Assembly (NCBI GenBank): GCA_029219205.1
Contig: JAQXSY010000030.1
Location: 1 to 58,998, forward strand
From: Bacillota bacterium
Lineage (GTDB): Bacteria > Bacillota > Clostridia > Oscillospirales > CAG-272
Length of the DNA stretch: 58,998 nucleotides
Direction: 5' to 3'
Shown: positions 10,192-58,490 of the stretch, piece after piece
How the letters are laid out: every line of letters begins with the position of its first letter
Position numbering within the stretch: the stretch's first letter is position 1
Translations under genes and position numbers: made by a program
Notes under the pieces: generated by a model
Database searches by the model: none
What the model saw: only the letters and a program-made list of their open reading frames with translations
Told to the model about the DNA's origin: nothing

Positions 10192-10194
10192 AAA

Positions 10195-30466: not shown

Positions 30467-31325
30467 ACGATATACGCTTTTTCACCGTTTCAGCAGGCGT
30501 ATATATGCGTTCAAGCTCCGTTTTCAGCGTGTTGTAATTGAAATTACGTTTCAGATTGCCGCCCTCCGCAACAGAAATCGTCCCGGTTTCCTCGGACACT
30601 ATGATAACCAGCGCGTCGCTGTTTTCGCTCATTCCGATTCCGGCCCTGTGACGCGAGCCGAGATCCTTTATTATGTCCTCATTTGACGAAAGCGGAAGAA
30701 AGCAGCCCGCCGCGTATATACGGTCGCCTCTTATAACAACCGCACCGTCATGAAGCGGCGCTTTGTTGAAAAAAATATTTTTCAGAAGAAACGACGACAT
30801 CTCGGCATTTACGACAACACCGCTTTTAATAATATCGCCCAGCTTTGTCGACCGTTCAATAACAATAAGCGCTCCGGTACGCTCCCTTGAAAGGTCGTTC
30901 ACCGCATCGCACATCTCACTTATGAAACGGTATTTTCCGGGAAGCTCTCGTGATTCGCCTATGCTTTTAAGCCCCTTCAGAGGCTCTCCGCCGACTTTTT
31001 CAAGCGCGGATCTCAGCTCCGGCTGAAAGACGATTATCAGCGCAAGCACTCCGACCTGAAACACATTTTGCATAATAAATCGAAGAGCATTCATCTCGAG
31101 CAGATCGCTCACAAGCTGAAGCAGCACAAGAACGATTACGCCGACGGCAAGTTTTCCCGCGCGCCTGTCGCATATGAATTTATAGATATAGTATAGAAGA
31201 ACCGCCACAATCGCAATGTCGATCAGATCCCAGAAGTTCATGGCGGTCACCTGACGTATGAGAAAATCCCACGCGCCGCTAAACGACTCCCTCAAAGCAG
31301 ACAACGCCTTCACCGTACCTTTCAA
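30429..31325 (-). CDS. cdaA: diadenylate cyclase (c-di-AMP synthase)
   Basis: 298 aa with three N-terminal TM helices and a DAC domain carrying HDGAVVI and LGSRHRAGIGMSE motifs. Confidence 0.92.
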   Translation of the reverse strand: MKGTVKALSALRESFSGAWDFLIRQVTAMNFWDLIDIAIVAVLLYYIYKFICDRRAGKLAVGVIVLVLLQLVSDLLEMNALRFIMQNVFQVGVLALIIVFQPELRSALEKVGGEPLKGLKSIGESRELPGKYRFISEMCDAVNDLSRERTGALIVIERSTKLGDIIKSGVVVNAEMSSFLLKNIFFNKAPLHDGAVVIRGDRIYAAGCFLPLSSNEDIIKDLGSRHRAGIGMSENSDALVIIVSEETGTISVAEGGNLKRNFNYNTLKTELERIYTPAETVKKRISFGKNENDRRKQK

Positions 31326-38613: not shown

Positions 38614-39900
38614 CTAAATTGCTTTTTTTACAGGATATTTATCGCAAATACCTTCATAAACCGAGCCGAGCGCCCAAATCGTGTACAGAACCCAGACTCC
38701 GGTAACGGCAAAATTTATCACCCACCAGTACCATGCCTTTGCGTCGATCATCGCGTACATCAAAAGAGATACCGTCTCTTCTGCAATTCCGCCTATAAAG
38801 CAACCGATCATTTTATTACGGTACATGTTCTTGCGGCGCAGCTCGGAAGTATTAAGATGATAAAAACCGTCCTCGGCAAATACTCCGGTATGCGCGTCTG
38901 AAATTTTTGAAATCATCCGACAAATGAAACCCAGCGACAAAATAAACGCAGCCGACGATATAGCCTCAAAAATCAAATAATATAACGGAGCTCCAGTTTC
39001 GGAGATATCTCCGCAGCCGAGCGACGCAATAAACGCCGCAGCCGACACGGCAATATACGCAGACGACGCAAAAACAGATTTTTTTGCCATACCGCAGACC
39101 GGGATTAAGACAAATGCTGCCGTGGTCAAAAATATTGCGCCGACAAAATCAGGCATAATATTTGTTCCCATTGTAAAAAAGTCAATCATAAACACCGCGC
39201 CAGCGCCTATCAGAAACCGTGCATAGGAAAAGCGCTTTCTGACTTTTTCTCCCTCCGGGATAACGATAGCCGCAACTTCGCTTTGCAACGATTCCATAAA
39301 AGCAGTGTTCTTTCCGATTCTTCTGAAAAAGGAAACGGAAAGGCAAAGCCAAACGGCGCCTGAAACCAGCGAAAAGAAAACGCCGACAAGTATAAGCACA
39401 GGTTTATAGTAAACGAGAGAATACGACTCAACATAAGCGTCGTCATAGACCTGCGTCAAATAAACAAGCTCCGGCATAATGTTTAAAAACGCCCTGACAA
39501 CCGCAAACACCAAAGTTGACACCGCAAGTCCTGAAGGTTTCGGAATCGAAAAGCCGAGTCTCGTTCCAAGATAGGACAATCCGTCGGCGATATACCTGAA
39601 GGAAGAAATAAAGTATATGGTTTCAAGCAGCATGAATCCCAAAGTAAAGACAAGCAAAAAAGTCTTTTCGTCGCTGCCGATAATGAATATAACTGGAATT
39701 GAAGCTGTTTTTACGGCATTTACCAGAGCCAGCCTGCGAAGAGGCTCAAGCGCCGCGCCAAAAGACGGAGAAACCGGCTCAAGCCTGTATATACCCGCAT
39801 AAATAAGCAAGCAGCCTATAAAATCCGGAAACACATCAATAATGTTTATATTGGGATTTACGAAAAACAGCAGTCCCGCAATAATTAAACCGATCCTCAT
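38614..39900 (-). CDS. polytopic membrane protein with internal duplication, unknown function
   Basis: 428 aa with about 10 hydrophobic helices. The motif (F/M)PDF(I/V)G occurs near the start of each half (IDVFPDFIGCLLI and NIMPDFVGAIFL). Lies 27 nt downstream of secA. Confidence 0.6.
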   Translation of the reverse strand: MRIGLIIAGLLFFVNPNINIIDVFPDFIGCLLIYAGIYRLEPVSPSFGAALEPLRRLALVNAVKTASIPVIFIIGSDEKTFLLVFTLGFMLLETIYFISSFRYIADGLSYLGTRLGFSIPKPSGLAVSTLVFAVVRAFLNIMPELVYLTQVYDDAYVESYSLVYYKPVLILVGVFFSLVSGAVWLCLSVSFFRRIGKNTAFMESLQSEVAAIVIPEGEKVRKRFSYARFLIGAGAVFMIDFFTMGTNIMPDFVGAIFLTTAAFVLIPVCGMAKKSVFASSAYIAVSAAAFIASLGCGDISETGAPLYYLIFEAISSAAFILSLGFICRMISKISDAHTGVFAEDGFYHLNTSELRRKNMYRNKMIGCFIGGIAEETVSLLMYAMIDAKAWYWWVINFAVTGVWVLYTIWALGSVYEGICDKYPVKKAI

Positions 39901-44940: not shown

Positions 44941-44975
44941 AACCGGGAAAGACTTTAAACAAGTCTTCCCCGGTT
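44941..44975 (-). terminator. terminator hairpin ending the 7-gene ABC locus
   Basis: On the minus strand: AACCGGGGAAGACTT-GTTT-AAAGTCTTTCCCGGTT followed by a weak T-tract (TCGATTT). Located 44-78 nt after the stop at 45019. Confidence 0.55.
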
Positions 44976-45018
44976 TTGTTTTGTAATGTAATTCTTCGAT
45001 TGTTTCGTCTGATTATTA

Positions 45019-46077
45019 TCAGCCGGTTATGCCGGAACGCTCAATACCCTGAACAAGGAATTTCTGGCAGAACAGATATACTATGATCAACGGAGCGATA
45101 ATCATAAGACCGCAAGTGTTCAGTGCTGCCGCCGAGTAAAGCTTTCCACCCGCATAGCTTGTGTCGATTGACTTCGGAACCTTAATTATATCGGGCATAA
45201 GTTTGATCGTTGACTGCGTAAAGAATACGTTTGTATAGAAGTTATCCGTCCACTGCCATGAGAAAGCAAACAGGAATACTGTTACCATCATGGGTATCGA
45301 AATCGGAAGTACGATCTGTACAAAAGTACGGAAGATGCTGGAGCCGTCAATGTATGCGGATTCCTCCAATTCATCGGGAACATTGCGGAAGAACTGACGC
45401 ATCATGAAAATGTAAAGTCCGTTCTTAAACGCAAGGCCTCCGATAGAGAGTAGCAGCAACGGCCAGAATGAGTTGTTCAGATTTATTGATGTGAACGGAA
45501 TGACTTTGAAGCTTTCGATCACACCGCCGCCGAGAAGATTGAAAATTCCGAGGATGTCAAAATATCTGAACTTCATAAACATTGACAGATGAAGCGTCTC
45601 GTGAGGAACGACCATCGTAAAGATTACGAGCGCAAACAGAATCTTTGAGCCCTTAAACTTATACTTGGCAAATCCGTAACCGATCATACAGCATACAAAC
45701 GTCTGAATAACGCCGCATGATACGCAAAGGATCGTTGTATTAAGCAAAGCCTGAAAATAACCGTTCTCAACGATTACCGCTTTGTACGTATCAAGAGTCG
45801 GGTAACGCGGTATCAATTTGACTGTTACGTCAACAAAATCCGCACGGCTCATGAAGGATGAAGCAATCTTTGTAAAGAAAGGAAGCAGGATTATGTAGGA
45901 AATTCCGAGTAGAAGAACAAGACGGAATATCCACCAAATGAGCTTTGCAAAGAAGAACGATGAGAAATATTTGATCTTTATACGTTCCCATAAACTGGTG
46001 CGTTCAAAATCAACCTTAATTTTATTTTTGGATTCCCTCAATACTTTAGGAGCTTTTTCAGTATTTTGTGCATTCAT
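45019..46077 (-). CDS. carbohydrate ABC transporter permease (MalG-like, long N-terminus), second pair
   Basis: 352 aa with 6 TM helices and the EAA loop ESAYIDGSSIFRTFVQIVLP. Confidence 0.85.
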   Translation of the reverse strand: MNAQNTEKAPKVLRESKNKIKVDFERTSLWERIKIKYFSSFFFAKLIWWIFRLVLLLGISYIILLPFFTKIASSFMSRADFVDVTVKLIPRYPTLDTYKAVIVENGYFQALLNTTILCVSCGVIQTFVCCMIGYGFAKYKFKGSKILFALVIFTMVVPHETLHLSMFMKFRYFDILGIFNLLGGGVIESFKVIPFTSINLNNSFWPLLLLSIGGLAFKNGLYIFMMRQFFRNVPDELEESAYIDGSSIFRTFVQIVLPISIPMMVTVFLFAFSWQWTDNFYTNVFFTQSTIKLMPDIIKVPKSIDTSYAGGKLYSAAALNTCGLMIIAPLIIVYLFCQKFLVQGIERSGITG

Positions 46078-46091
46078 TTTACATTACCTCC

Positions 46092-47096
46092 TTAAGCATC
46101 TCTTCTCTGGTAGAAGACGAACGCAGACAGCAACGCCGCTGCAAGAGCAATTATTCCAATTACCAACAGGAAGTACATCCACGCCATAGCCGAGCTTACA
46201 ACCGTACCGCCGGCTTCGTTGTATACGGCGTTTATGTAGTTCATAACCGTATTGGATTCGGATGTAAACGAGTCGATGATAGTGTAAACCGTGTTGACGA
46301 GAATCATAGGGCTGATCATCGGAAGAGTGATCTTCCAGAATGTTTCCCATGCTGAAGCGCCGTCGATCGAGCAGCTCTCATATATAGACGGTGAGATGGA
46401 CTGAAGTCCCGCAAGGAAAATCAGCATCTGAACTCCGGAACGGTTTATAATATCGTAAATATTATTGATAAGTCCGCTGACATACACCGCCAGATCGTTA
46501 CCGACGCGCATGTTGCTGAACAGGAACGAAAGGTCCGTCGCCTTGATGAGGTCAGTAACCGCGCTTCCGCCGGTACCGTCATCGATGGTCTGCGACATAT
46601 CGTTCATGTAGTTAAGAAGTTCGTTCGAACGGTCGATCTGATCGATAAGACCGGTCGAAAGAATGACTGGGATAAAGAATATCGCTCTGAACGCAGCGCG
46701 TCCAAACATATTCTGATTAAGCAGCACCGCCATAAACAGTGAGAATATGACAATTGCAGGTATATCAAACAGAAGCTGCTGAACGCCGGTTGTAACAGTT
46801 CTGATAAAATCCGGGTCAACAAAGAGCGCTTCCTGATAGTTTGCCCAGCCGACAAAGTTAAGAGTGTAGCCGCCGCCCTGCAGAATCTTTATTTCATTAA
46901 AGCTGAACTTAATGGAATCGAAAATTATTGGAATGTATATAATCACGAATCCAAGTATAAACGGCATGATAAAGAACCAACCTGCACGGGCCTTTTTCCT
47001 GTCGAGCGAGACAATTCTTCTCTTTTTAGGCTTCGGAGCTGCTGTTTTAGCTGTTGTTTGCTTTGTCAATTTTCGCACCCCCTGCTTACGGCTCAA
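46092..47096 (-). CDS. sugar ABC transporter permease (MalF-like), second pair
   Basis: 334 aa with a basic N-terminus, 6 TM helices and the EAA loop ESCSIDGASAWETFWKITLP. The start overlaps the upstream gene by 11 nt. Confidence 0.85.
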   Translation of the reverse strand: MSRKQGVRKLTKQTTAKTAAPKPKKRRIVSLDRKKARAGWFFIMPFILGFVIIYIPIIFDSIKFSFNEIKILQGGGYTLNFVGWANYQEALFVDPDFIRTVTTGVQQLLFDIPAIVIFSLFMAVLLNQNMFGRAAFRAIFFIPVILSTGLIDQIDRSNELLNYMNDMSQTIDDGTGGSAVTDLIKATDLSFLFSNMRVGNDLAVYVSGLINNIYDIINRSGVQMLIFLAGLQSISPSIYESCSIDGASAWETFWKITLPMISPMILVNTVYTIIDSFTSESNTVMNYINAVYNEAGGTVVSSAMAWMYFLLVIGIIALAAALLSAFVFYQRRDA

Positions 47097-50091
47097 TTAC
47101 AACATATCCGAGACCGCTTATAGTGTAACCATCAGCGGTAACGTCAAATGTATTGTAGTTGAGAATAAACTGATAACCGTTTTCAAAAGTTACACGAACG
47201 ATCATACCGTTATCAGATATGTATTTTGTCGATCCTTCATCATCATAGACCGGCAGAACGGGCTTCGCGCTGGGAACATACTCCGTTCCGGTTCTTTCAG
47301 CAAATTTCTTCGCGCGCTCCTCCTCTGCTTCCCATTCAGCGAGAATCTTTTCGGCTTCTTTTTCAACTGCAAGCTTTGCTGCTTCGTCAGCTGCAAGCTC
47401 ACCCGCCGTGGGAATTCTGTTTCCGACAAGGAATTCATGATACTTTATCGGAGAATACTGAACCTTTGAAAGAACCTCGTTAAGCTCGTTGTAAAGCGAA
47501 ATCAGGTCTTCCTTCCAAATTGAATAGGAAACCGAATAATACTTTGAAAGTGTTTTATTATTCTTGAGGCTTGCCTCATTCTGATATGCAAAGACGAAGT
47601 ACGGGCTTGCACCGTTTTCGAGTATTTTAAGCTTCTCCTGACGAATATCGCCAGCCATGTTTGTCGCCGTTCCGGAGAAGTTTATGTAGCTGTGGAATAC
47701 CATTCCAAACAACGGTATGGATTCGCTTGCATAAGTAAAGTTACTCGAATCGAGCGATACATTCAGTACATGATCGACATACGGGAGTGTGTACGCGTTT
47801 CCGGAGTCAACCATAACTTTGCCGTATTTTTCCTTGATTTTTGCAAGGACTTCGGAAACGAAGACCTTTGAGTCCTCGCGGTTGTAAGGATCCTTCGAGT
47901 CGAAATCGGAGTTCAGATCAGATCCGAGCGTTGCAAAGGATACGCCGTCTGCTCCAAGCTTATCAAGGGAGTTGCTGAGTTTTCCAAAGAGTTTGTCAAA
48001 TACCGACGGAGAAATTGCGATAAGACCTGTTTTCTCGAAATACTGAAGCGTTGCACTATATGTACGCTTCTGGGTATAACGCTTGTCGATTGTCTTAATG
48101 CCGTCGGTTTTCAGAGAGAAATCGTCGAACATAACGTCTTTATATGTGTAAGATATATCGAAATCAGGATATACCTCAACACCTTTTTCCGCCGCATATT
48201 CGAGGAAATCTTTATAGCCGTTGTTGCCGCCGGCCGTCTTTTCAAATTTGATCTTTGTCGGGAACGTATTTTCAAGTCCGCCGTTAATAAATCCTGTGAG
48301 ACGGTAGATTATCCTGTTTATACCGGCCTCATTCAATTCGCTTGTCATGGTTTTAAGGTTTTCAAAAGTCGTCAGAGGCTTTTTGACCATGACAGGCACG
48401 GACATGATTCTTTCCTGAACGTCCGTTACGCCAAGCGTTTCGATGTAGAGCGGTATGTCGCTGTTTGTGTTATCAACAGGTGAAATGTATTCGTTGCTGA
48501 TAAGATAATCTCTGTAGGCTTTCGCCATACCGACATACGATGTCTCGTAATAATCGGTAATGTTATTCTCTTCCGCATAATTCGGGTCGGTAAGCATTAT
48601 GTATCTGATACGATAGCTTCCGGAATATTTACGGTCAGAGGTTACCGAGAAAGTCGCATCTCCGCTTATGGAAATAGACGAACCGAGGTTGTACGAGTCA
48701 GAAGGGCGCGGGTCGAAGCGCGTATATGTCGAATTATACTTGTGAATAGTATTGACGCCGTGGTCAGTTATTATGGTTGCAAGCGCGTCGCCTTCTTCTA
48801 TTATTGCAACATAGCCGTTGGACAAAACATATCCTTCGTCTATAACCTTACCGTTTTCGTCATACTCTACTCCGTATACGTGATCTTCCACGAGTCCGAA
48901 CAGCGGCAGACGCATAACCTGCTGATGCTGTTCGCCTATGTTGTGGTAGGCGTAGTCGATACCGTACAGCTTACCGGAAATTGCCCGCGATGTCGCCTGC
49001 TTCAGCGTATCCTCAAATCTTACGATTGTGCCTGCGCCGTCGGGAATCATCGTATATCCGGTATATTCGGAAGAACCTGCTCCGAAGTACGGGAGTATCA
49101 TTATATAATTGAGAGAATATGCGCTTTCGTCAAAACGAATACTGTTTGCGGGCAGACGAACCGACAGTCCCTGCTCGTCAAGGTAGTATTCAAGCGCAAG
49201 TCTGAAAAGTGCGGGATCCTTGTCGTTGCCCTCATATTTAGTCTTTTCATGGTCTTTTTCAAGCTGTTCATATGTGTAATGAGGACAGAATTCTTTAATA
49301 ATTGCCTCACATTTGTTCAGCTCGCGTTCAGTTGCTGCATCGTCAAATGTATAAACTGCCATTTCACGGGTTATCGGGAAGGCAGCCTGCATCTCTCTGC
49401 GTTCACGGTCGGTAATATCAGCGTCGGGGTCCTTAAGAATATAGAATGTTTTAAGGAACTTCAGCTTTGTTTCGTCAGTAATATATGCATAAATCAGTTC
49501 CTCAAGGCGTTCCTTCGGAATAAGCTTCGGAACAAGTTTACGAGTCTCCTGACGACCCATTATATATTCGACGCGAATACCGTTTTTAACGTTTTTACGC
49601 CTAATCTGGTCGCGCTGTGCTGCTTCAACGAAACTGTACATGTACTGATCGCCGGTGCCGCCGGAGAACTTAATTATTATCTGCGAAAGCAGCTGGTTTT
49701 TGATATTATCGGAAGGATATCTTTTTAAGTTCGGAAGGCCGACAGCAACGTCATACGGGTTTGTTGAAAGAATCTGGCCCGTCGACTTGTTTACAACGGC
49801 AACTTCGCCTGTATAATCTTCATAATACAGCTGGTAGCCGTAGCGGTCAAGCACAAGCTCCATGGTTTCGAGTTTTTCTTCCATGGAATAGAATTTTTTG
49901 GTGAGGTAATTTGTCACTACCTCTTCTTCTTCTTCGCCGTCTTCTTTGTTTTCTTCGCTTTCATCCTGATTTTCGGTTTCGACTTCATCTGCAGCGTCAT
50001 CTGCAAAAACCGGAAAGATGGAAAGCGGAATCAATGCACCGAGAACCAGGCAGAAGGTCAGCAGTGCAGATAAAAACCTGATCAATTTCAT
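47086..50091 (-). CDS. large secreted protein of unknown function (possibly DUF5696-like)
   Basis: 1001 aa. Signal peptide (LSIFPVFA/DD) followed by an acidic tract DESEENKEDGEEEEE. C-terminal charged helix AADEAAKLAVEKEAEKILAEWEAEEERAKK. No motif I can tie to a characterised enzyme family. Confidence 0.6.
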   Translation of the reverse strand: MKLIRFLSALLTFCLVLGALIPLSIFPVFADDAADEVETENQDESEENKEDGEEEEEVVTNYLTKKFYSMEEKLETMELVLDRYGYQLYYEDYTGEVAVVNKSTGQILSTNPYDVAVGLPNLKRYPSDNIKNQLLSQIIIKFSGGTGDQYMYSFVEAAQRDQIRRKNVKNGIRVEYIMGRQETRKLVPKLIPKERLEELIYAYITDETKLKFLKTFYILKDPDADITDRERREMQAAFPITREMAVYTFDDAATERELNKCEAIIKEFCPHYTYEQLEKDHEKTKYEGNDKDPALFRLALEYYLDEQGLSVRLPANSIRFDESAYSLNYIMILPYFGAGSSEYTGYTMIPDGAGTIVRFEDTLKQATSRAISGKLYGIDYAYHNIGEQHQQVMRLPLFGLVEDHVYGVEYDENGKVIDEGYVLSNGYVAIIEEGDALATIITDHGVNTIHKYNSTYTRFDPRPSDSYNLGSSISISGDATFSVTSDRKYSGSYRIRYIMLTDPNYAEENNITDYYETSYVGMAKAYRDYLISNEYISPVDNTNSDIPLYIETLGVTDVQERIMSVPVMVKKPLTTFENLKTMTSELNEAGINRIIYRLTGFINGGLENTFPTKIKFEKTAGGNNGYKDFLEYAAEKGVEVYPDFDISYTYKDVMFDDFSLKTDGIKTIDKRYTQKRTYSATLQYFEKTGLIAISPSVFDKLFGKLSNSLDKLGADGVSFATLGSDLNSDFDSKDPYNREDSKVFVSEVLAKIKEKYGKVMVDSGNAYTLPYVDHVLNVSLDSSNFTYASESIPLFGMVFHSYINFSGTATNMAGDIRQEKLKILENGASPYFVFAYQNEASLKNNKTLSKYYSVSYSIWKEDLISLYNELNEVLSKVQYSPIKYHEFLVGNRIPTAGELAADEAAKLAVEKEAEKILAEWEAEEERAKKFAERTGTEYVPSAKPVLPVYDDEGSTKYISDNGMIVRVTFENGYQFILNYNTFDVTADGYTISGLGYVVIEP

Positions 50092-50128
50092 AATATTTCT
50101 ATCTTCTCCTATCTTCTTCCGTTACCGG

Positions 50129-52270
50129 TTACATTCGGTAAGACAATTCGGTTGCTATGCTGGAAACAAAGCCGACCATCTTCGTTACTATGTTCGAGAA
50201 CAAAAGTCCAAGGAACATAATGACCGCCATTCCGACAATTGTTCCGACACATGTTATCACATTCTTGAACAGCGTGTAGTCATGGGTTACCATCATTCCG
50301 AAGAACAGCAGCAAGCCGACCCATACCCAACCGATGGAATTCAACGTTGTATAAACGGTGGTCTCGGATTGTGTAAGTATGTGGGTTATGATCGTTGAGG
50401 GAATTATGAACAGCGGAAGCGGCATCAAAGAATACGCAGTTGCAATAAATACATCCTTGAAGCTTCCTTCGCCCTCAAAGAGCGTCGTAAGACACCAGTT
50501 TGCCGTAACCCAAAGAATTATAGGCACAATAAGTGAAAGCGCCTGCATGAAAACGCTGGAATAAGTGGCTCTCGGATTGAAAATGTAAGAGCGGCCGATT
50601 GCCTGGTACGAAAATGCGACAGCCGAAAGCAGAATAATAAACAATCCTGCGCGAACGGAACCGCGCTTTTCATGCTTCAGATCCCAGAAGCCGTCGAAAG
50701 GATGGAGCATTATATGGAACACATACATAAATTCCTGCCAGAACGTACGCTTGCCCTTATAAAGTTCACCCTTTTTGTTAACTTTCTTTGCGTAACCTGA
50801 AAATAGAACGAGCAGCCATATCAGAACAATTACTGCGATCGGAACTATCAGGAAATATCTCGACGCCCAGTTTGTACGGTACATACCGAAGGCCATTGAG
50901 TAATTCTTGATATCGTAGGCGTTCTTGAAGTACTCCATCGCCTGCGTCCATTCGCCGTTTCTGTAATAAGCTTTTCCGATTCCGACATATGCGGCATCGA
51001 AGTTACTGTTTCTCTGAAGAATTTTGAACCAGTCGTTTATTGCCTCGTCATATTTTCTGTCGTTATCGTTTTTCAGAGCGCCGAGGAGAATGTCGCCGTA
51101 CTCGGTTCTCGTATAGACGGTTATGTTGTTGGCCGTCTTATCAAGGACGAGCATTGTTTCGTCCTGATAAACGATTGCCTCTATGGACTGAAGACATCCC
51201 ATCATGTTTCCGGTATCACCAAAAGCAAACAGGAGGTTGCCGAATGAGTCGTATGTGTAGATTTTGTTTCGTTTTTCGTCGATTATCGACCATGTTCCTT
51301 CCGGCCCGAGAGCAACGTCGATTATCTTGGAAGCACCTTTGATCGAGCTTACAAGCGAGTCATTGTTAACCTTAACTTCTCCGCCGGGGCCGAAGAAGCC
51401 GTTTCTTCCGAGGATATCGTCTCCGGATGCGTTGAACATTTTTACGGGAGCATAATCCGCAGAATTATTCTTAATTGAATCCTGCTGATTTGCTTCATCA
51501 ATCGACGATGTGGTTACGTAGATAAAACCTCTGTCGTCTATTGTGATGTTGTTATACTCCGTAGGTATATACTGAGTGGAAAGAGCTCTCTGCTCGGCTG
51601 TCTGGAACTGCCTCCAGAAAATATCAATCGCACTGTAGGCAACCTTCTGCGCTCCGACATATGACTGGAATTCGCCGTTGCTGTTAAGAGAAAGTATACC
51701 CTGATATGTTGTTGAAGAAACAACATAAATACGTTCCGAAGCGTCGACGGCAAGTGCAACCGGTTTATAGATCGCATTATCCTCGAAGATGTTGGATTCA
51801 GGCTCTTCAAGGTGCTTTATATAATTGCCCTCAAGGTCGAAAATTACGATTCGGTTGTTTTCTGTGTCGGCGACATAGATCTTGTCTTTTGTAACAAACA
51901 AACCGGACGGAGTGTTCAGACTGTCATATACGCCGTGCGAGTTAAGGAAGTTTTCACCGAATGTGAATCTGAGTCGGTAGTATGGGTCAAGCGCAACAAT
52001 ACGGTTGTTTGCCGCATCTGCAATATATACATTGTTTGATTTGTCAACAACGAGATCGCGAGGATCGCTTATTGCCACATCAAGTCCCATATACTTCGAG
52101 TCCACCTGCATAACGGGTGTGTAGGCGTCCGGCGAAAGAAGCGGTTCGCCGTCTATCGAATAGGTGTAGGTTGAATATGCTGCCGCATATGCCGGAAATG
52201 CGCAGCCAAATGCCATAAGAAGCGCAGCCGCAGTTATAAGAGCTGTTTTTAGAAGCTTTTTCATTTTCAT
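50129..52270 (-). CDS. fusion protein: signal peptide, NHL-repeat beta-propeller, TPR, C-terminal Yip1-like 5-TM domain
   Basis: 713 aa with repeated NHL-like units (ADAANNRIVALD, ADTENNRIVIFD and others). TPR-like segment YDEAINDWFKILQRNSNFDAAYVGIGKAYYRNGEWTQAMEYFKNAYD. Five hydrophobic helices follow to the C-terminus. Confidence 0.7.
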   Translation of the reverse strand: MKMKKLLKTALITAAALLMAFGCAFPAYAAAYSTYTYSIDGEPLLSPDAYTPVMQVDSKYMGLDVAISDPRDLVVDKSNNVYIADAANNRIVALDPYYRLRFTFGENFLNSHGVYDSLNTPSGLFVTKDKIYVADTENNRIVIFDLEGNYIKHLEEPESNIFEDNAIYKPVALAVDASERIYVVSSTTYQGILSLNSNGEFQSYVGAQKVAYSAIDIFWRQFQTAEQRALSTQYIPTEYNNITIDDRGFIYVTTSSIDEANQQDSIKNNSADYAPVKMFNASGDDILGRNGFFGPGGEVKVNNDSLVSSIKGASKIIDVALGPEGTWSIIDEKRNKIYTYDSFGNLLFAFGDTGNMMGCLQSIEAIVYQDETMLVLDKTANNITVYTRTEYGDILLGALKNDNDRKYDEAINDWFKILQRNSNFDAAYVGIGKAYYRNGEWTQAMEYFKNAYDIKNYSMAFGMYRTNWASRYFLIVPIAVIVLIWLLVLFSGYAKKVNKKGELYKGKRTFWQEFMYVFHIMLHPFDGFWDLKHEKRGSVRAGLFIILLSAVAFSYQAIGRSYIFNPRATYSSVFMQALSLIVPIILWVTANWCLTTLFEGEGSFKDVFIATAYSLMPLPLFIIPSTIITHILTQSETTVYTTLNSIGWVWVGLLLFFGMMVTHDYTLFKNVITCVGTIVGMAVIMFLGLLFSNIVTKMVGFVSSIATELSYRM

Positions 52271-52280
52271 ACCCTCCTGT

Positions 52281-53144
52281 TCAGCCCTTCATTCCGGACG
52301 ATCCCATTGTTTCAACGATCTTACTCTGGTTGATAATGAATATCGTAATCGGTACGCTCATCATCAAAATTGCAGCGGCGGAACCTGCACCGGCCGAAAC
52401 ACCTGAGATCGTTGCAATAGCCGTGTTGAAAGTTTTAAGCTGTTCGCTCCAAACATAGCCCGAAGCGCCCGAGTTCCATACGCCCTGGAAGGTTGTAACG
52501 ATAAGCGTCAGCCATGCAGGTTTGACAAGCGGCATAACTATTCGCCAATAGATCTGGAGCTCCTTCGCCCCGTCTATCCGGGCCGCTTCTATCATTTCGT
52601 CGGATACGTTATCGTCTATAAATTGCTTCATCAAATACAAGCCCATGGTTGACGCCCATACCGGCACAATTGAGATTGTATATGTGTTAAGCCATCCGAG
52701 AGCAACGTAAATAACGAACGAGGTAAGGCCGGATATAACCGAACTGATCATAAGAGAATATCTTATAACCATAAATATGAAATTCGATCCCGGGAATCTG
52801 ATTTTTGAAAGCGCAAACGCCGTTATCGATCCGAAAACCAAGCATCCGAAAGTTGCGCACACCGATATAATTATCGTGTTGAATATGTATCTTGAAACCG
52901 GAACCCAGGTTATGTTCAGGTTTGTGAAAAGGTCGATAAAGTTCTGAAGCGTCGGCTTCATAACATAGAATCTCGGCGGCGTTATCGAACGTTCACCTAG
53001 CGGCTTGAACGCCGTGATAACAAGATACCACATGGGAAGAAACATGAAGAGTCCCATTATCGAGAGAACAATGGTTATTACCGTATCTCCTCCTGCTGAC
53101 CGGTTCAGGACAACAGCGTGTTTTCTCACTCTGAGTTTTTTCAT
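52281..53144 (-). CDS. carbohydrate ABC transporter permease (MalG-like), first pair
   Basis: 287 aa with 6 TM helices and the EAA loop EAARIDGAKELQIYWRIVMP. Confidence 0.9.
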   Translation of the reverse strand: MKKLRVRKHAVVLNRSAGGDTVITIVLSIMGLFMFLPMWYLVITAFKPLGERSITPPRFYVMKPTLQNFIDLFTNLNITWVPVSRYIFNTIIISVCATFGCLVFGSITAFALSKIRFPGSNFIFMVIRYSLMISSVISGLTSFVIYVALGWLNTYTISIVPVWASTMGLYLMKQFIDDNVSDEMIEAARIDGAKELQIYWRIVMPLVKPAWLTLIVTTFQGVWNSGASGYVWSEQLKTFNTAIATISGVSAGAGSAAAILMMSVPITIFIINQSKIVETMGSSGMKG

Positions 53145-53146
53145 TG

Positions 53147-54112
53147 TTATTGTCCCACCTTTGAAAGAAATTTCTGAACCACAATGTTGGTACCCATCAT
53201 TATAAAGAAGAGTACAAGCGATATCGCCGAAGCGTATCCGAACTCAAAACGCGTCCCCATATACTCAGACAAATGATGTTGCAAAGTCCACGCGCAATAG
53301 TCCGTTGAAGGGTTGCCGCACAAGGCGTTAACAACTCCTCCAAATCCGAATGCACCTGTGATTGAAAGCACCGCTCCGAAAAGAAGCGTGTTCTTCATCT
53401 GCGGCAGGGTTATGTACCAGGCTTCCTGCCAACGGTTTTTAATTCCGTCAATCGCCCCCGCTTCGTAAAGCGAACGGTCGACACCCTGAAGACCCGCGAT
53501 ATTCGCAAGGAATCCCATACCAAGCGAACACCATATCTGAATCATTATAACAAGAGGAACAATATATCGAGTATCCTTAAAGAAGGCAATTGGTTTAGTT
53601 ATCATTCCCATCTTCAACAGCCAGCCGTTAATGTATCCGTATATATCGCTCTGGAAAAGAAGCGACCAAACAAGATACGCGGAGCCGGAAATACTCGGAG
53701 CATAGAATATGAAAGTTACAACCGCTCTCGCCTTAGGCGGAAGCTCATTTATAAACCACGCGACTAAGAAAGAAAGTATAAAGCATGCCGGGCCGGTTGC
53801 AACCGCGAACATCATAGTATTCTGGAAAGCCTTTATGAACAGATCGTCTTCAAGGAAGAGGCGGATATAGTTGTCGAGGAATCTCCACTGCGGCCATTCA
53901 AGCATGTTGAAGTCCGTGAAGCTGAGAAGTATCGACAAAATAACCGGGACGACCGTGAACGCGAAAAAGGCAAGGCAGAAGGGAAAGACTAAAACGTAAC
54001 CTACCCATGTACGCTTCATCTCGCTCAGAGTGTACTCAAATTTGGTCATCTCTTTGCGCGACTTATGCTTCTTGGGCGGCTTCTGTTCCTTCATCGCTGC
54101 TGTGTTAGTCAT
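53147..54112 (-). CDS. sugar ABC transporter permease (MalF-like), first pair
   Basis: 321 aa with 6 TM helices and the EAA loop EAGAIDGIKNRWQEAWYITLP. Confidence 0.9.
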   Translation of the reverse strand: MTNTAAMKEQKPPKKHKSRKEMTKFEYTLSEMKRTWVGYVLVFPFCLAFFAFTVVPVILSILLSFTDFNMLEWPQWRFLDNYIRLFLEDDLFIKAFQNTMMFAVATGPACFILSFLVAWFINELPPKARAVVTFIFYAPSISGSAYLVWSLLFQSDIYGYINGWLLKMGMITKPIAFFKDTRYIVPLVIMIQIWCSLGMGFLANIAGLQGVDRSLYEAGAIDGIKNRWQEAWYITLPQMKNTLLFGAVLSITGAFGFGGVVNALCGNPSTDYCAWTLQHHLSEYMGTRFEFGYASAISLVLFFIMMGTNIVVQKFLSKVGQ

Positions 54113-54153
54113 TTTGCGTTTCTCCTTTTTAGATTTTGTCGCAAACAGATTGT

Positions 54154-57100
54154 TTAGCGTTCGCCTTCAATAAGGATCCACTGACCGTTCTGTGTACTGT
54201 TCAGATCGTAATAATCCATACGGAACTCGCGGCGTTTTCTGGATATTTCCTTATTAATATTAAGCACTCTATCGAGCATCTGCGTCGACGGATCGGATGA
54301 TTTTGCATATACATCCTGGAATGCTGCATTGACGTATGTTCCGACAATATAGTTTCCGGGGTACTCGGGAATTCCTACAAGAGCGTCAAGCTGTGTTTTG
54401 ATTGCCTCGTACTCATAATCTGTCCACGCAAGCTTAAGAAGCGCTCCTGTTGTTGCCGTTCCCATTTTTGTTGTCGGGTTTGCGCTTACCGCAAGTGTTT
54501 CCTTTGCCTGAAGGAGCTGCGTCTCTTCGCAAACAGACCACTTCATGTATTCCCATGTTGCCTCGGGATTGTTTGCGCCTCTGGGTATAACAATTGCAGA
54601 AGTTGTTATAGGAGAAGTACGGTTAATCTTGCCCTCTTCATCCTCAAATCCAAGCAGCGGAGCCATTTCCCAAAGTCCACGAAGTTCGTAGAATGACATA
54701 AGCGAGTTGTAGGTTCCGATAGCGTCGGCAATCATGATCGGAATTTCACCTGTTCTGAAACGCGACATATCTTCAACTACAGGGCACTTGTATTTGGTAA
54801 ACAAATCGCAGTACGATTCAAATGCGTCAAGCGATTCGTTTGCATCGACATTGATACGCATTCCGTTATCACGATAGAGCGATCCGCCCTTCTGATAAAT
54901 GAACATATTAAGACCGGCAAGTGCACTCGTCGGAACGGACATCTGCAGGCTCGAGTTCTGAAGTGCGGGAATAACATCGTAAAGTTCATCCCATGTTGTC
55001 GGTATTTTCAGGCCGAGATCGACGAATACGTCAACACGGTAGAAAAGCATATAAAATGAAAGCGATGTCGGCAGACCGTAGGTCGTACCGTAAAGCGTGA
55101 GCGGAGTTGTAGCTGCTTCGCTGAACCATGTCATCGTCTCGTCAAAGCCTTCAAAATCGTTTAGCGGCTCGACTGCGTTTCTGAGTCCCCATGTTATGGT
55201 GTCTGTAGAGCTCATGTTCGAAACGTCGGGACCGATGCCGGCAAGTATCGCCTCGGTCAATCCGGCGGTTATAACCTTAATCGTTACGGATATTCCCGAT
55301 TCCGGAGTGAAGTAGTTATCTATAAGACCTCGCTGAATAAGCGCACTGTCACGTCCGGCAGCCGCATTCGCTATCCACATTTCAACGGTCTTGTCTTCAT
55401 CGTATACAACGTCGCCCTTAAAACCTATCGTGGTATAGTCCATAAAGAAGCTCATTATGAAAGCTCTTATTTCAAACCACGCGCCCTGAAGGAAGTTCGA
55501 CCTTGCCTGAGGAAGCTTCGAATCAACGCCCTGTACAACGAAGTAGTCCAGCTTTATAGGCTGGCCCAACGCAGCATACAGCCAGTTACTGAGCGAGATA
55601 ATGTAGTTCTTGAACGAGACAAAGTTCGGAGCAATCTCATATTCGTTACGCGCCATTTTTTCAAAAAGCGTCGCAACCGTTTCAAGCTGCTGTACCTGGT
55701 CTCCGACCTCGCCTGTTATCTGCTTAAGCTCATCGGCTATGCGGTAAAGCGCGTCTGCAGAGTTACCGATTGTTACTATCGCCTCGGGAACAAGGCGGTT
55801 GAAACCATAGTCACGGTAAGCGTCCGGGACAGGTCCCGTCAGCTGAAGGAGCATCTGATAAGCATCGTTCAGTTCTTCGATCATCTGCTCAATCTCGTAT
55901 ATATAGGGTTCCATATCCCCGAGGACAACTTCGAACGTAAGCGTATTCTTGCCCTCTTGCAGATAGAAGAGGAATTCCTGAGTGCCGTTGTTTAATCCAA
56001 GCACCTGCCAGTCGGGCGAGTACTTGAATCTGAGGTGGCTCGCTTCGGCAAACTGAATCTCGCCGTTGACATAGAGTCTGCGGGACGTAAACATACCGAT
56101 AAGCGAGTTCTGACGGAAACGGGTTACAATTCTGTAAAGTCCCGCTTTCGGAACCTCGACCTCATATCTCATCCACTGGTTTGCAACAGATGCGTCGAGA
56201 TAATTAAACTTAATAACCGCTGGATCCTGAGGCTCTGTGAGCGAAGAAGTACGGTCGTTTGTCGGGAAAAGACAAGCATTTGATACTTTTTCCGGATTCT
56301 CGGCCTGAATCTTTACAGGTTCAACGCCGGTGACTTCTGTCACGCCTTCCGCCTTCATCTTCTCAAGGAATTCGCTGTATGAAATCTCACCCTCATAAGG
56401 ATAAAGTTCAATCGAACTGATTGTCATCGGCTCTCTCGTAGCCTCGAACGTGATCAGATGCTCTCCCTCGGTAAAATAATACTCATACGGAGCCATCGTA
56501 TAACCGAGCCAGTCACGAAGATAATATGTCTGCCATTCAGGCGATTCTTCACGAATGGGTCGTATATCGTTTCCGTTCTTATCCTTTTCGAATGAACCGT
56601 CTTCCAGAGTCTGATACTCCCATACTCTCGGGAAATAATAGTATCTCGATTCAGAGAAAGGGAAATATCCGTCGATATATACCATTCTCTCAATCGTAGT
56701 ATAGGTTCCGGGTTCCGGGTAGTAAGTTATGCGAATCGCATATCTTCCGGTCTCAGGTATCGTCACTTTCCAGGAAGTCTTTCCCGTTGAAGGCGTAGTT
56801 AAAGCTTTGTCCACGCCCACGTAATTTGTCTTGACCTCAACGGCGGCGTCCGTGTTTTCCACGTCGTAATCCGTAACGTCAACGGAGATTGTCTTTTTTC
56901 CCTTCGGAACGTTTTCGTACTTGATATCATAATTCTTGTACGCGATTGTTCCGAGGAATTTCTTTATCTCCGAGACCGTACGGAAGCTGCCGAAGGTCAT
57001 ATCTCCATCCATTGGCGCGCCGGAGCCGTCTTGTTGATCGTCTGTACCGGAAGCCGTAGTCAGGGGCGCGTTGTCCTCAGACGCAAACGCCGGAACGGTC

Positions 57101-57171
57101 ACGAATGTTCCCGCCAGCATCAGCGATGCCAAAAGCACTGCCAATGATTTTTGAAAAAGAGACTTTTTCAT
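54154..57171 (-). CDS. giant extracellular solute-binding protein: two tandem beta-sandwich (CBM-like) modules, helical linker, family-1 SBP domain
   Basis: The start is set at the ATG at 57171 (GGGAGGAAAG RBS) rather than the TTG at 57189. Signal peptide MKKSLFQKSLAVLLASLMLAGTFVTVPAFA. The C-terminal ~420 aa have a family-1 SBP layout (MWIANAAAGRD...YGLPTSLSFYMLFYR...FIYQKGGSLY). Confidence 0.75.
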   Translation of the reverse strand: MKKSLFQKSLAVLLASLMLAGTFVTVPAFASEDNAPLTTASGTDDQQDGSGAPMDGDMTFGSFRTVSEIKKFLGTIAYKNYDIKYENVPKGKKTISVDVTDYDVENTDAAVEVKTNYVGVDKALTTPSTGKTSWKVTIPETGRYAIRITYYPEPGTYTTIERMVYIDGYFPFSESRYYYFPRVWEYQTLEDGSFEKDKNGNDIRPIREESPEWQTYYLRDWLGYTMAPYEYYFTEGEHLITFEATREPMTISSIELYPYEGEISYSEFLEKMKAEGVTEVTGVEPVKIQAENPEKVSNACLFPTNDRTSSLTEPQDPAVIKFNYLDASVANQWMRYEVEVPKAGLYRIVTRFRQNSLIGMFTSRRLYVNGEIQFAEASHLRFKYSPDWQVLGLNNGTQEFLFYLQEGKNTLTFEVVLGDMEPYIYEIEQMIEELNDAYQMLLQLTGPVPDAYRDYGFNRLVPEAIVTIGNSADALYRIADELKQITGEVGDQVQQLETVATLFEKMARNEYEIAPNFVSFKNYIISLSNWLYAALGQPIKLDYFVVQGVDSKLPQARSNFLQGAWFEIRAFIMSFFMDYTTIGFKGDVVYDEDKTVEMWIANAAAGRDSALIQRGLIDNYFTPESGISVTIKVITAGLTEAILAGIGPDVSNMSSTDTITWGLRNAVEPLNDFEGFDETMTWFSEAATTPLTLYGTTYGLPTSLSFYMLFYRVDVFVDLGLKIPTTWDELYDVIPALQNSSLQMSVPTSALAGLNMFIYQKGGSLYRDNGMRINVDANESLDAFESYCDLFTKYKCPVVEDMSRFRTGEIPIMIADAIGTYNSLMSFYELRGLWEMAPLLGFEDEEGKINRTSPITTSAIVIPRGANNPEATWEYMKWSVCEETQLLQAKETLAVSANPTTKMGTATTGALLKLAWTDYEYEAIKTQLDALVGIPEYPGNYIVGTYVNAAFQDVYAKSSDPSTQMLDRVLNINKEISRKRREFRMDYYDLNSTQNGQWILIEGER

Positions 57172-57344
57172 TAATCTTTCCTCCCACAAGATTAAAATGC
57201 TTTTCGGCAGCCAGTTTGTTCCTCTGAACCGGTCGGCGCCGCAACCGCTCCTATACGTGTACCCATTCGTTTAACCGTTAATCCCGTCTAATGTTCGGGA
57301 GGCTTTTTCTCGGATAAGCATAAGATATTACAAAATATTAATAA

Positions 57345-57446
57345 GGTAAAAAAATAAAGTCTTTTCGGGGGTCGATGAATTTTGTTCACATTTTTACGCT
57401 TATTGTGACATTTGTCGCCTCGCGTAAAGACAAATCGACCCTCGAC
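57345..57446 (-). promoter_or_regulatory. structured 5' leader element ending in a U-tract (possible attenuator or small RNA)
   Basis: On the minus strand, closing helix GGGTCGAT...ATCGACCC encloses two small hairpins (TTTGTC/GACAAA and TCACA/TGTGA). It is followed by TTTATTTTTTT. It begins about 10 nt after the predicted transcription start. Confidence 0.35.
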
Positions 57447-57460
57447 TTTTTTACTTATAA

Positions 57461-57489
57461 ATAATATCATATAAATAAATAATTGTCAA
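57461..57489 (-). promoter_or_regulatory. sigma-A type promoter for the 7-gene ABC locus
   Basis: On the minus strand: TTGACA (57484-57489), a 17-nt spacer, then TGaTATTAT (hexamer 57461-57466). Confidence 0.6.
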
Positions 57490-57824
57490 TAGCACAAATT
57501 TACGCGATTTCTCACGATAAATTAACACGCAATTCAAAAAACGGTCAAAAACACAGCCCCTTTTTATTCATAACCCCCCTTTCCAAAACTGCTGAAAAAC
57601 GTTTAATTTCGCCGTTTTTCGCGATATTTCGGGATTTCGGGCTACATTTGAAGTTAATTTTGCTGTATCTTTTTTTCTGACTAAACGCTTTCTCCGCTTC
57701 TTCTGAAAATACTGTTTTTCAAATCAAAAGCCTCGCTCGTGTGCATGTTGCACAATTTATGAACAAAAATTTCTACATAGAGAACAAACGCTGATTTTGT
57801 TTATTTTCCTTAGCTTGACAATCC

Positions 57825-57854
57825 GACATAGTAAATGATATAATTTAAAAACAA
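57825..57854 (+). promoter_or_regulatory. sigma-A type promoter for the HD-domain nucleotidase gene
   Basis: TTGACA (57825-57830), an 18-nt spacer, then TGaTATAAT (hexamer 57849-57854). AAGGAG RBS precedes the ATG at 57882. Confidence 0.6.
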
Positions 57855-57881: not shown

Positions 57882-58490
57882 ATGGCAGAGTCACAAAGCA
57901 GCTTTTATTCGATACTGTTCAGGCAGAAATACATAAAACGCTGGGGGCTTATGAACAGTGTGACGCCCGAAAATCTCTGTGAACACAGCGCCGAGACCGC
58001 GATACTTGCCCATGCGCTCGCAGTCATCGGCAACACATATTTCGGAAAAGACTACGATTGCGGACGCACGGCAGAGCTGGCGCTTTTCCACGACTCCGCC
58101 GAAGTTTACACCGGCGATCTGCCCACTCCGATAAAGTATTACAGTCCGGAAATGCGTAAGTCATACGCCAAAATCGAAAGCAATGCGCTGAACGCGCTTA
58201 TCGAAAAGCTTCCGCCGGAAATGCGCTCGGCATATTCAGAAACGCTTTTCAACACTAAAGAATCGGACGCCGGGCTTTGGATTCTTGTCAAAGCGGCCGA
58301 CAAGCTTGCGGCACACATAAAAGCGCTGACCGAAGTACGGGCAGGCAACGGAGAGTTTATACAGGCTCAGCGTACAACCCGTGAAGCCATGGACAAAATG
58401 GACTGTCCGGAGCTTATGTACTTCAGGGAACATTTTCTCGATGCGTTCGGACTGACGCTTGACGAGATGCAGATGAACTACACTTCATAA
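57882..58490 (+). CDS. HD-domain 5'-deoxynucleotidase (YfbR-like)
   Basis: 202 aa with HD-domain residues in EHSAETAILAHALA and LFHDSAEVYTGDLPTP. Confidence 0.82.
   Translation: MAESQSSFYSILFRQKYIKRWGLMNSVTPENLCEHSAETAILAHALAVIGNTYFGKDYDCGRTAELALFHDSAEVYTGDLPTPIKYYSPEMRKSYAKIESNALNALIEKLPPEMRSAYSETLFNTKESDAGLWILVKAADKLAAHIKALTEVRAGNGEFIQAQRTTREAMDKMDCPELMYFREHFLDAFGLTLDEMQMNYTS

Follow-up and report, generated by a model that had tools for sequence, protein, structure and literature searches.

What is encoded by seven genes that follow one another on a single strand and combine two pairs of sugar-type permeases, one giant binding protein and two further large proteins? This question is raised by positions 44941-57489 of a contig (JAQXSY010000030.1, assembly GCA_029219205.1) from a Bacillota bacterium of the Oscillospirales lineage CAG-272, the whole analysed stretch of which (58,998 nucleotides) is here called the window. 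A previous sequence-only reading had regarded these genes as a Gram-positive analogue of a polysaccharide utilisation machine. According to the analysis described here, the locus, here named the cassette, is probably an operon for the capture of glycans or oligosaccharides at the cell surface and for their import, based on a CUT1-type ATP-binding cassette (ABC) transporter and representing the transport core of Gram-positive glycan utilisation loci. The best reading of its parts would be a CUT1 ABC importer plus three cassette-specific accessory proteins.

All seven genes are on the minus strand. The first encodes a giant substrate-binding protein (SBP) of 1005 amino acids (aa), with an open reading frame (ORF) at 54154-57189 that likely covers 54154-57171, starting with an ATG at 57171 after GGGAGG. 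It is followed by the genes for permeases F1 (MalF/UgpA-like, 53147-54112, 321 aa) and G1 (MalG/UgpE-like, 52281-53144, 287 aa), an NHL-TPR-Yip1 membrane protein recognised by Pfam, Protein Data Bank (PDB) matches and hydropathy (50129-52270, 713 aa), a protein with Pfam domain DUF5696 (PF18952; 47086-50091, 1001 aa), and a second permease pair, F2 (46092-47096, 334 aa) and G2 (45019-46077, 352 aa). The ORF coordinates reproduced exactly the gene set and junctions given in the sequence-only reading which, from the SBP to the G2 gene, are gaps of 41, 2, 10 and 37 nt, an 11-nt overlap and a 14-nt gap.

The conservation of this arrangement was evaluated in a scan with one genome per species, which detected relatives in 372 genomes; the best 80 loci were taken with 10-kb flanks, and the seven window proteins were searched against their ORFs. 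These loci come, at the species level, from uncultured Clostridia of guts and digesters, and their DUF5696 proteins are 43-58% identical to that of the window. The order SBP-F1-G1-NHL/TPR/Yip1-DUF5696-F2-G2 was found on one strand in all 80, without exception: 60 contain the complete cassette, and 20 contain contiguous sub-runs ended by a contig edge. Together with the eight distant loci described below, these loci extend the gene order well beyond one strain, the point on which the earlier proposal could have failed. Close homologues of the DUF5696 protein over its full length number more than 1,100, and a profile search with it retrieved 5,437 clusters at 50% identity, 3,000 of them at E <= 1e-30. 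Clustering of the approximately 900 ORFs flanking the 80 loci revealed no universal ATPase or regulator gene. The commonest flanking genes are housekeeping genes (NifS/NifU, YfbR, AlaRS and RNase H), and SBP-like matches in the flanks were weak and limited to 5/80 loci. A ROK-family protein is encoded within about 3 kb of upstream sequence in 8/80 loci (for example L037, 935-2161, 408 aa); it is a possible sugar kinase or repressor, and the only regulator-like neighbour seen in the close clade.

More distant relatives were obtained through a tblastn search of DUF5696 against annotated plasmids, which gave two matches (27% and 24% identity) in Butyrivibrio and Paenibacillus, and through homologues of the Butyrivibrio DUF5696 protein, which led to six further loci (L083-L088). 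The cassette order is kept in these eight loci, which belong to Butyrivibrio, Roseburia, Acetatifactor, Paenibacillus, Cohnella and a metagenomic Lachnospiraceae-like contig, and the co-occurrence of SBP, YIP1 and DUF5696 annotations in Clostridia and Paenibacillus, mentioned in the earlier reading, is correct. In the Butyrivibrio fibrisolvens plasmid pNP243 (L081) the cassette is preceded by genes for a histidine kinase, a response regulator and a glycoside hydrolase (GH) of family GH43, contains NHL and Yip1 as separate genes, and is followed by two more SBP genes. The Acetatifactor locus reads histidine kinase, GH43, cassette and two SBPs, and that of Roseburia, known only from a metagenome-assembled genome, LacI, GH53, cassette, SBP and GH53. 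The sequence LacI, SBP, cassette was found in Paenibacillus alkalitolerans, Cohnella nanjingensis and P. catalpae, followed by GH113, by GH26, and by GH26, a gene without Pfam match and GH113, respectively. The metagenomic contig (L088) contains GH43, cassette, SBP, GH35, LacI and GH42, and in P. cellulosilyticus (L082) a ugpC ATPase gene lies directly before the cassette.

The co-location of transporter, glycanase and regulator, by which a Gram-positive polysaccharide utilisation locus (gpPUL) is defined, was found in L081 and L083-L088. The enzymes of these relatives point to galactan or arabinogalactan (GH53, GH43, GH35 and GH42) and to mannan (GH26 and GH113) as candidate substrates. The short GH53, GH43, GH26 and GH113 enzymes beside the cassette lack a signal peptide, and the long GH53 and GH43 enzymes are lipoproteins. 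The presence of endo-enzymes without signal peptide next to constant accessory proteins suggests a generic uptake of long oligosaccharides rather than a substrate-specific enzymatic step.

An ordinary SBP gene adjoins the cassette in all the Lachnospiraceae and Paenibacillaceae versions seen (L081, 16444-17949; L083, 14635-16530; L084, 1555-2922; L085, 1646-3016; L086, 14483-16081; L087, 1352-2731; L088, 14610-16112). The encoded proteins, of 455-631 aa, are mutually orthologous, with 59-68% identity within Lachnospiraceae and 26-30% to the Paenibacillaceae copies over their full length, and the Butyrivibrio protein has a lipobox. No orthologue of this protein was found in the window. The ordinary SBP is effectively an eighth conserved component, absent from the window and from most close relatives. 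The earlier description of two pores served by only one binding protein is accurate for the window clade, but the Lachnospiraceae and Paenibacillaceae add this second SBP.

With regard to the energy source, a Pfam scan of 30 window ORFs flanking the cassette (those of 150 aa or more, except ORF 469-1608) detected neither an ABC ATPase nor a regulator, and a six-frame search of the whole 59-kb window, including the remaining ORFs, gave no UgpC-type ATPase and no LacI. The lack of an ATPase or regulator, noted before for the seven genes, extends in this way to the entire window. In L082 the gene that immediately precedes the cassette encodes a UgpC/MsmX-type ATPase, and L016 and L031 (2/80) have such a gene in their 10-kb upstream flank, which fits the idea, also put forward before, of a shared MsmK/MsmX-type ATPase.

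The four permeases were all assigned by Pfam (BPD_transp_1, above threshold) and NCBIfam, and make up two permease pairs. Each of them has an intact EAA loop, as the sequence-only reading had noted: YEAGAIDG in F1, EAARIDGA in G1, YESCSIDGA in F2 and ESAYIDGS in G2. The loop is conserved family by family, in 69/70 F1, 70/72 G1, 63/72 F2 and 67/67 G2 orthologues. A pair of BPD_transp_1 permeases, each with an EAA loop, and an SBP_bac_1/8-type binding protein are defining features of CUT1 importers, and the cassette has both, the pair twice. Each window protein has its positional counterpart as best match in the distant loci; the identity of F1 to its namesakes in Paenibacillus and Butyrivibrio is 40-49%, versus 24% to its own F2, and the G permeases behave likewise. 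Since F1 and G1 are closer to their counterparts in another class than to F2 and G2 of the same locus, the two pairs are paralogues of ancient origin, and the cassette has been passed on as one unit. Hydropathy analysis predicts about 70 aa in the outward loop before transmembrane helix (TM) 4 of F2, longer than in F1, and in G2 a longer N-terminus than in G1 and longer outward loops, with about 57 aa before the last TM. The longer outward loops of F2 and G2 might be docking surfaces.

Two permease pairs could also mean two ordinary and independent CUT1 importers whose genes are interleaved, with the DUF5696 and NHL-Yip1 proteins free-standing and not assembled with the pores. The relatives do hold two SBPs for two permease pairs, Roseburia loci have been listed simply as '2 x ABC' (PMC5320581), and physical contact between the parts is presumed. 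Independent importers would nevertheless be expected to become separated or reshuffled, and the interleaved order is kept in 88 loci from two Bacillota classes; the cassette was present at every DUF5696 locus fetched, and among 72,556 plasmids a Yip1 module of this type was found in only two records, both of which also encode DUF5696. This alternative is considered unlikely.

The giant SBP was modelled with AlphaFold2 (AF2; predicted local distance difference test, pLDDT, 79.8). Its N-terminal hydrophobic segment and low-complexity linker are followed, from residue ~90 onwards, by two CBM35-like beta-sandwiches (carbohydrate-binding module family 35; residues ~90-260 and 285-416), a four-helix bundle (420-535) and a CUT1-type oligosaccharide SBP domain (540-1005). 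The SBP domain of the window protein is below the Pfam threshold, but a PDB sequence search with phmmer matched 5ci5 (2.9e-9, residues 588-796), and homologues carry PF01547 and PF13416. Foldseek placed 5ci5, 5ysf, 9xf5 and MalE at the top, with target TM-scores of 0.72-0.79 for oligosaccharide SBPs; the nearest folds bind beta-1,2-gluco-oligosaccharides, cycloisomalto-oligosaccharides and maltodextrins. The sandwich modules matched Golvesin_C in 13/13 and CBM_35 in 8/13 homologues, all below curated cut-offs, and their profile gave weak matches to the CBM35-bearing chains 5x7g and 2vzp. The beta-sandwich modules to which the earlier reading ascribed polymer capture are seen in the model, and their resemblance to CBM35 remains sub-threshold by sequence.

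No lipobox cysteine was found in the N-terminus of the giant SBP, either in the window or in L081 (16444-19874), where there is a plain signal or anchor segment and a low-complexity linker. A giant SBP without lipobox on a monoderm cell differs from the lipoprotein ordinary SBPs encoded beside the Butyrivibrio cassette. The protein is probably tethered by its N-terminal hydrophobic segment. In elongated SBPs, which reach 1,288 aa, Pfam found no extra domain that would tell the substrate.

In the 713-aa protein, a signal peptide is followed by an NHL beta-propeller, which is extracytoplasmic, and then by a TPR region, a TM helix at 473-491 and a Yip1 domain with five TMs at 519-687. Pfam recognised NHL (2.3e-13) and Yip1 (PF04893; 6.9e-14, 52.5 bits against a cut-off of 28.6, residues 519-687), with TPR sub-threshold; NHL and TPR also had PDB matches, and hydropathy showed five hydrophobic segments between 537 and 689. 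Two separate genes encode the NHL and Yip1 proteins in Lachnospiraceae and in part of the Paenibacillaceae. No additional substrate-telling domain was found by Pfam in an elongated NHL-Yip1 protein.

A propeller and a Yip1 domain next to ABC permeases could also suggest that the cassette serves for sensing, signalling or export instead of import. Extracytoplasmic NHL propellers do serve as sensor domains, as in PknD, and the Yip1-family protein YknW accompanies an ABC exporter (PMC4887032). Against this, all four membrane subunits (4/4) are BPD_transp_1 type I importer permeases with EAA loops and an SBP is present, and Pfam detected no kinase, cyclase or DNA-binding domain in the cassette, making a sensor or exporter highly improbable.

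The DUF5696 domain of the 1001-aa protein was recognised by Pfam with an E-value of 8.9e-144. Its N-terminal part contains a hydrophobic segment, an acidic linker, an N-terminal domain and a beta-sandwich, and is followed by a GH129/GH101-like (beta/alpha)8 barrel (residues ~540-890), a helical stalk (896-934) and a small conserved beta domain. The AF2 model (pLDDT 69.6; predicted TM-score 0.68) was compared using Foldseek, which ranked GH129 first (5opq, ZgGH129, 3e-24; 5wzn, NagBb, ~4e-19), with GH129 matches ranging from 3e-24 to 1e-17, and then GH101, GH36 and GH31. At the sequence level, a search of the PDB with the single sequence gave no match and a full-length profile gave only a very weak match to NagBb; a barrel profile including the Butyrivibrio and Paenibacillus copies matched NagBb at 4e-4 and in register, a marginal result covering only about 75 residues (NagBb 296-368). 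Nine residues are invariant across the family sample, from Clostridia to Paenibacillus (D656, D729, R738, N765, H800, N811, E825, W859 and H885). An attempt to locate catalytic residues by interpolation between two in-register NagBb segments pointed to the non-conserved D715, and no assignment was made.

The stalk of DUF5696 proteins varies from about 40 residues in the window to more than 1,000, in proteins of up to 2,545 aa. The extra length of the three longest forms whose tail was examined consists of an Ala/Lys/Glu-rich helical stalk, and the long-stalk homologues (P0417, P0404, P0399 and L077, 9989-15262) contain no other Pfam domain. Tethering of the protein to the membrane by its N-terminal segment seems likely.

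Several observations weigh against the reading of the cassette as a surface glycan capture and import system. The CBM35 similarity of the SBP sandwiches stays under curated thresholds, and the physical association of the cassette parts is purely our inference. Housekeeping genes surround the cassette in the window clade, where no carbohydrate-active enzyme (CAZyme), regulator or second SBP is encoded next to it. In DUF5696, no Pfam GH family matched the barrel at E <= 5; the model, of moderate overall confidence, has pLDDT below 50 around the expected catalytic loops (726-739 and 766-788), so that the invariant acidic residues D656, D729 and E825 could not be mapped onto catalytic positions and neither nucleophile nor acid/base could be assigned; and the expected acid/base position, D/E762, is Ser in the Paenibacillus copy. 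Finally, DUF5696, NHL and Yip1 stay constant while the flanking glycanases vary, which is odd for a substrate-specific enzyme. The role of polymer processor given to the 1001-aa protein in the sequence-only reading agrees with its glycosidase fold, with GH129 as top match; no catalytic pair was identifiable in it.

These features of DUF5696 could be explained by a non-catalytic binding or structural subunit derived from a glycosidase, in which case long oligosaccharides would be imported without cleavage at the surface. The constancy of the protein beside changing neighbours (GH53, GH43 and GH26/GH113) is as compatible with a generic or structural function as with an enzyme. The lack of a Pfam GH match, the variable acid/base candidate and the cytoplasmic endo-enzymes adjoining the cassette agree with this explanation; moreover, the D-G-W barrel-strand motif of NagBb aligns with T/N/S-G-F/W, and a stalk of variable length with a conserved small beta domain looks structural. 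Conversely, nine invariant residues maintained from Clostridia to Paenibacillus are typical of a retained active site, and the nearest folds are all active retaining glycosidases. Because the accessory proteins are constant and endo-enzymes without signal peptide adjoin them, a non-catalytic DUF5696 is kept as a serious, though less probable, alternative to the main reading.

The genes around the window cassette bear on another explanation, namely a housekeeping function in which the cell turns over or recycles glycopolymers of its own envelope instead of using nutrient glycans. The immediate neighbours encode a YfbR-like HD protein, a radical SAM protein, a SpoU methylase and SecA, and the window-clade cassettes are found among NifS/NifU, AlaRS, YfbR, SecA and radical SAM genes; a near-consensus promoter without regulator or CAZyme neighbours would also be compatible with such a function. 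However, cultured relatives embed the cassette among plant-glycan endo-hydrolases and sugar-responsive regulators, and the SBP fold is nearest to binders of oligosaccharides from dietary or plant glycans, and envelope recycling is consequently regarded as improbable. The lone cassette and its near-consensus promoter in the window clade could reflect constitutive use, with partners encoded elsewhere.

The promoter is a sigma-A-type sequence, TTGACA-17-TATTAT, at 57461-57489 on the minus strand, with 11/12 consensus positions and an extended -10 TG, as the sequence-only reading had located it. A consensus match alone is at chance level, with 26 promoter-like matches in the region against 25.8 expected. 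The exact pattern TTGACA-N15-TGnTATnAT is present 5' of the SBP gene in 39/67 related loci, compared with an estimate, from base frequencies, of fewer than one chance match summed over all loci. Downstream of G2, at 44941-44975 on the minus strand, the hairpin described before was confirmed (15-bp stem, 5-nt loop, -24.8 kcal/mol, z = -6.9 against shuffles) and is terminator-like, with a weak U-tract, UCGAUUU. Co-directional tight spacing and the conserved promoter suggest that the seven genes constitute one operon, presumably transcribed as a single messenger.

Between promoter and start codon lies a 5' leader of about 290 nt (57172-57460, minus strand), ending in the ribosome-binding site (RBS) GGGAGG. 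Its median length is 254 nt in 38 loci, window included. An Rfam scan of the whole window at gathering thresholds gave no match, and hence no known riboswitch or leader element, and the fold of the 284-nt leader was not significant (z = -1.6). Two candidates were discarded: an attenuator, since the long hairpin has its U-run about 10 nt away and is not canonical, and a conserved cis-regulatory RNA, since the 38 leaders share only the RBS and U-runs are sporadic. On the plus strand, a perfect 12/12 promoter (TTGACA-18-TATAAT plus TG) at 57815-57844 points to the YfbR-like gene (57882-58490), so the intergenic region contains two divergent strong promoters.

A working model can be proposed from these observations. 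The strong sigma-A promoter would drive all seven genes in what we take to be a single transcript. The two CBM35-like modules of the giant SBP, with their weak CBM character, would bind glycan chains, and its C-terminal domain would deliver oligosaccharides to one of the permease pairs, in the simplest case to the neighbouring F1-G1, a pairing that is presumed. DUF5696, presumably also anchored by its N-terminus and with its GH129/GH101-like barrel on a helical stalk, would trim or hold the captured glycan. The NHL-TPR-Yip1 protein could act as a membrane scaffold that keeps the surface parts beside the pores, because it strictly co-occurs with them and its propeller is fused to a Yip1 membrane domain. 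F2-G2 would be a second, anciently diverged pore with larger outward loops for a second class of products, delivered in relatives by the ordinary lipoprotein SBP and in the window organism presumably by a partner encoded elsewhere or by a cassette protein. Both pores would be energised by a shared MsmX/UgpC-type ATPase encoded elsewhere, because their EAA loops are intact and a UgpC-type gene is found close upstream in three relatives.

A further step would be that the seven proteins form one membrane supercomplex, a Gram-positive counterpart of the Bacteroidota utilisome, in which DUF5696 would be the founding member of a new glycosidase family, held on its stalk of variable length, and an NHL-TPR-Yip1 scaffold would feed captured glycan to two different ABC pores. 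This is proposed tentatively and is more doubtful than the capture and import function itself.

Other genes scattered in the window are related to carbohydrate metabolism: a GH29 alpha-L-fucosidase (13064-14347), a GH35 beta-galactosidase (17959-19722), a galactokinase (26101-27378) and a GH36-like (Melibiase) gene (34881-36875), none of them with an obvious signal peptide. The GH35 protein is homologous (8e-140) to the GH35 encoded beside the cassette in L088. These genes give a weak hint that the substrate may include galactose-containing glycans. At the window copy itself only the transporter part of a gpPUL was found, together with a DUF5696 protein that is glycosidase-like by fold alone. 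The concept of a Gram-positive polysaccharide utilisation locus is accordingly supported by the cultured relatives, with their endo-glycanases and sugar regulators, but not by the window copy, which has no CAZyme or regulator adjacent to it.

Three additional regions of the window were recorded. A MoxR-type AAA ATPase, a weak DUF58 protein and a 925-aa transglutaminase-like protein are encoded in a row at 7943-12972, which is the usual trio; a CdaA-type diadenylate cyclase and a YbbR-domain protein, the usual c-di-AMP synthase pair, are found at 29171-31325; and a 428-aa ORF adjoining secA (38614-39900) has no Pfam match.

The cassette is widespread and conserved, has three of its seven components (3/7) without assigned function, and has apparently never been studied. 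The sequence-only reading knew of no functional study of this type of cluster, and none was found in the literature. No paper mentioning DUF5696 was found; the papers found on YIP1 family proteins concerned only YknW and bacteriocin contexts; searches combining NHL, Butyrivibrio, GH129, polysaccharide utilisation and GH53/Roseburia gave no study of the cassette; and Yip1, NHL and DUF proteins are absent from a 2026 review of bacterial glycoside transporters. Clostridia of the gut and rumen and Paenibacillaceae of the soil have a major part in the degradation of dietary and plant glycans, but much less is understood of their uptake machinery than of the Bacteroidota Sus systems. Provided that its parts cooperate, the cassette would be a new accessory module for ABC sugar importers, probably with a new glycoside hydrolase family and a bacterial function for the Yip1 domain. 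If the supercomplex is real, it would allow monoderms to take up long oligosaccharides, and Yip1 would for the first time have a defined function in bacteria, that of organising ABC importers. Cultured carriers exist, namely P. cellulosilyticus KACC 14175, P. alkalitolerans, P. catalpae, C. nanjingensis and B. fibrisolvens D1, and their flanking enzymes suggest mannan, galactan and arabinogalactan as substrates.

Among known systems, the CUT1 importers with a shared ATPase, such as E. coli MalEFGK2, B. subtilis GanSPQ and AraNPQ with MsmX, and the Roseburia intestinalis mannan transporter, resemble the cassette in their BPD_transp_1 permease pairs with EAA loops. They also have an SBP of the same oligosaccharide-binding fold cluster and an ATPase gene usually located outside the operon. 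The co-location of the relatives' cassettes with glycoside hydrolases and LacI or two-component regulators is a further likeness. The cassette differs in having two anciently diverged permease pairs in one operon, an SBP of about 1000 aa with two extra beta-sandwiches, a helical bundle and no lipobox, and the NHL-TPR, Yip1 and DUF5696 components inserted between the permease pairs.

The loci of Roseburia, Butyrivibrio, Acetatifactor, Paenibacillus and Cohnella, whose transporter part is formed by the cassette, resemble the gpPULs of Sheridan et al. (2016, PMC5320581) in that they also contain glycoside hydrolases and regulators. The window copy differs from gpPULs by having no regulator and no recognised CAZyme beside it. 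In the gpPUL literature the transporters are given as 'ABC' or '2 x ABC', and DUF5696, NHL and Yip1 are not treated as components (PMC5320581). The same study described a GH53 arabinogalactan locus in R. hominis and R. faecis (PMC5320581), and its Roseburia loci may contain the cassette.

The Sus-like systems of Bacteroidota are similar in logic, with a surface binding module, a glycosidase-like surface protein and a transporter that are encoded and conserved together. The cassette nevertheless has ABC pores, no outer membrane and no SusC/SusD, domains of which were not found in the seven proteins or flanking genes, and the resemblance is one of analogy, not homology.

With GH129, represented by Bifidobacterium bifidum NagBb and Zobellia ZgGH129, and with GH101, the DUF5696 protein shares a fold of beta-sandwich plus (beta/alpha)8 barrel. 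It differs from them in its low identity (~10-12%), the absence of a Pfam GH match and of an identifiable catalytic pair, its N-terminal anchor, helical stalk and C-terminal beta domain, and its occurrence only inside an ABC cassette. Lastly, Bacillus YknWXYZ (PMC4887032) offers a precedent for a bacterial Yip1 membrane protein encoded with an ABC transporter as its presumed partner. YknYZ is an exporter of another ABC class that works with a membrane fusion protein (PMC4887032), whereas the Yip1 domain of the cassette occurs together with type I importers and has an NHL propeller either as fusion partner or encoded next to it.

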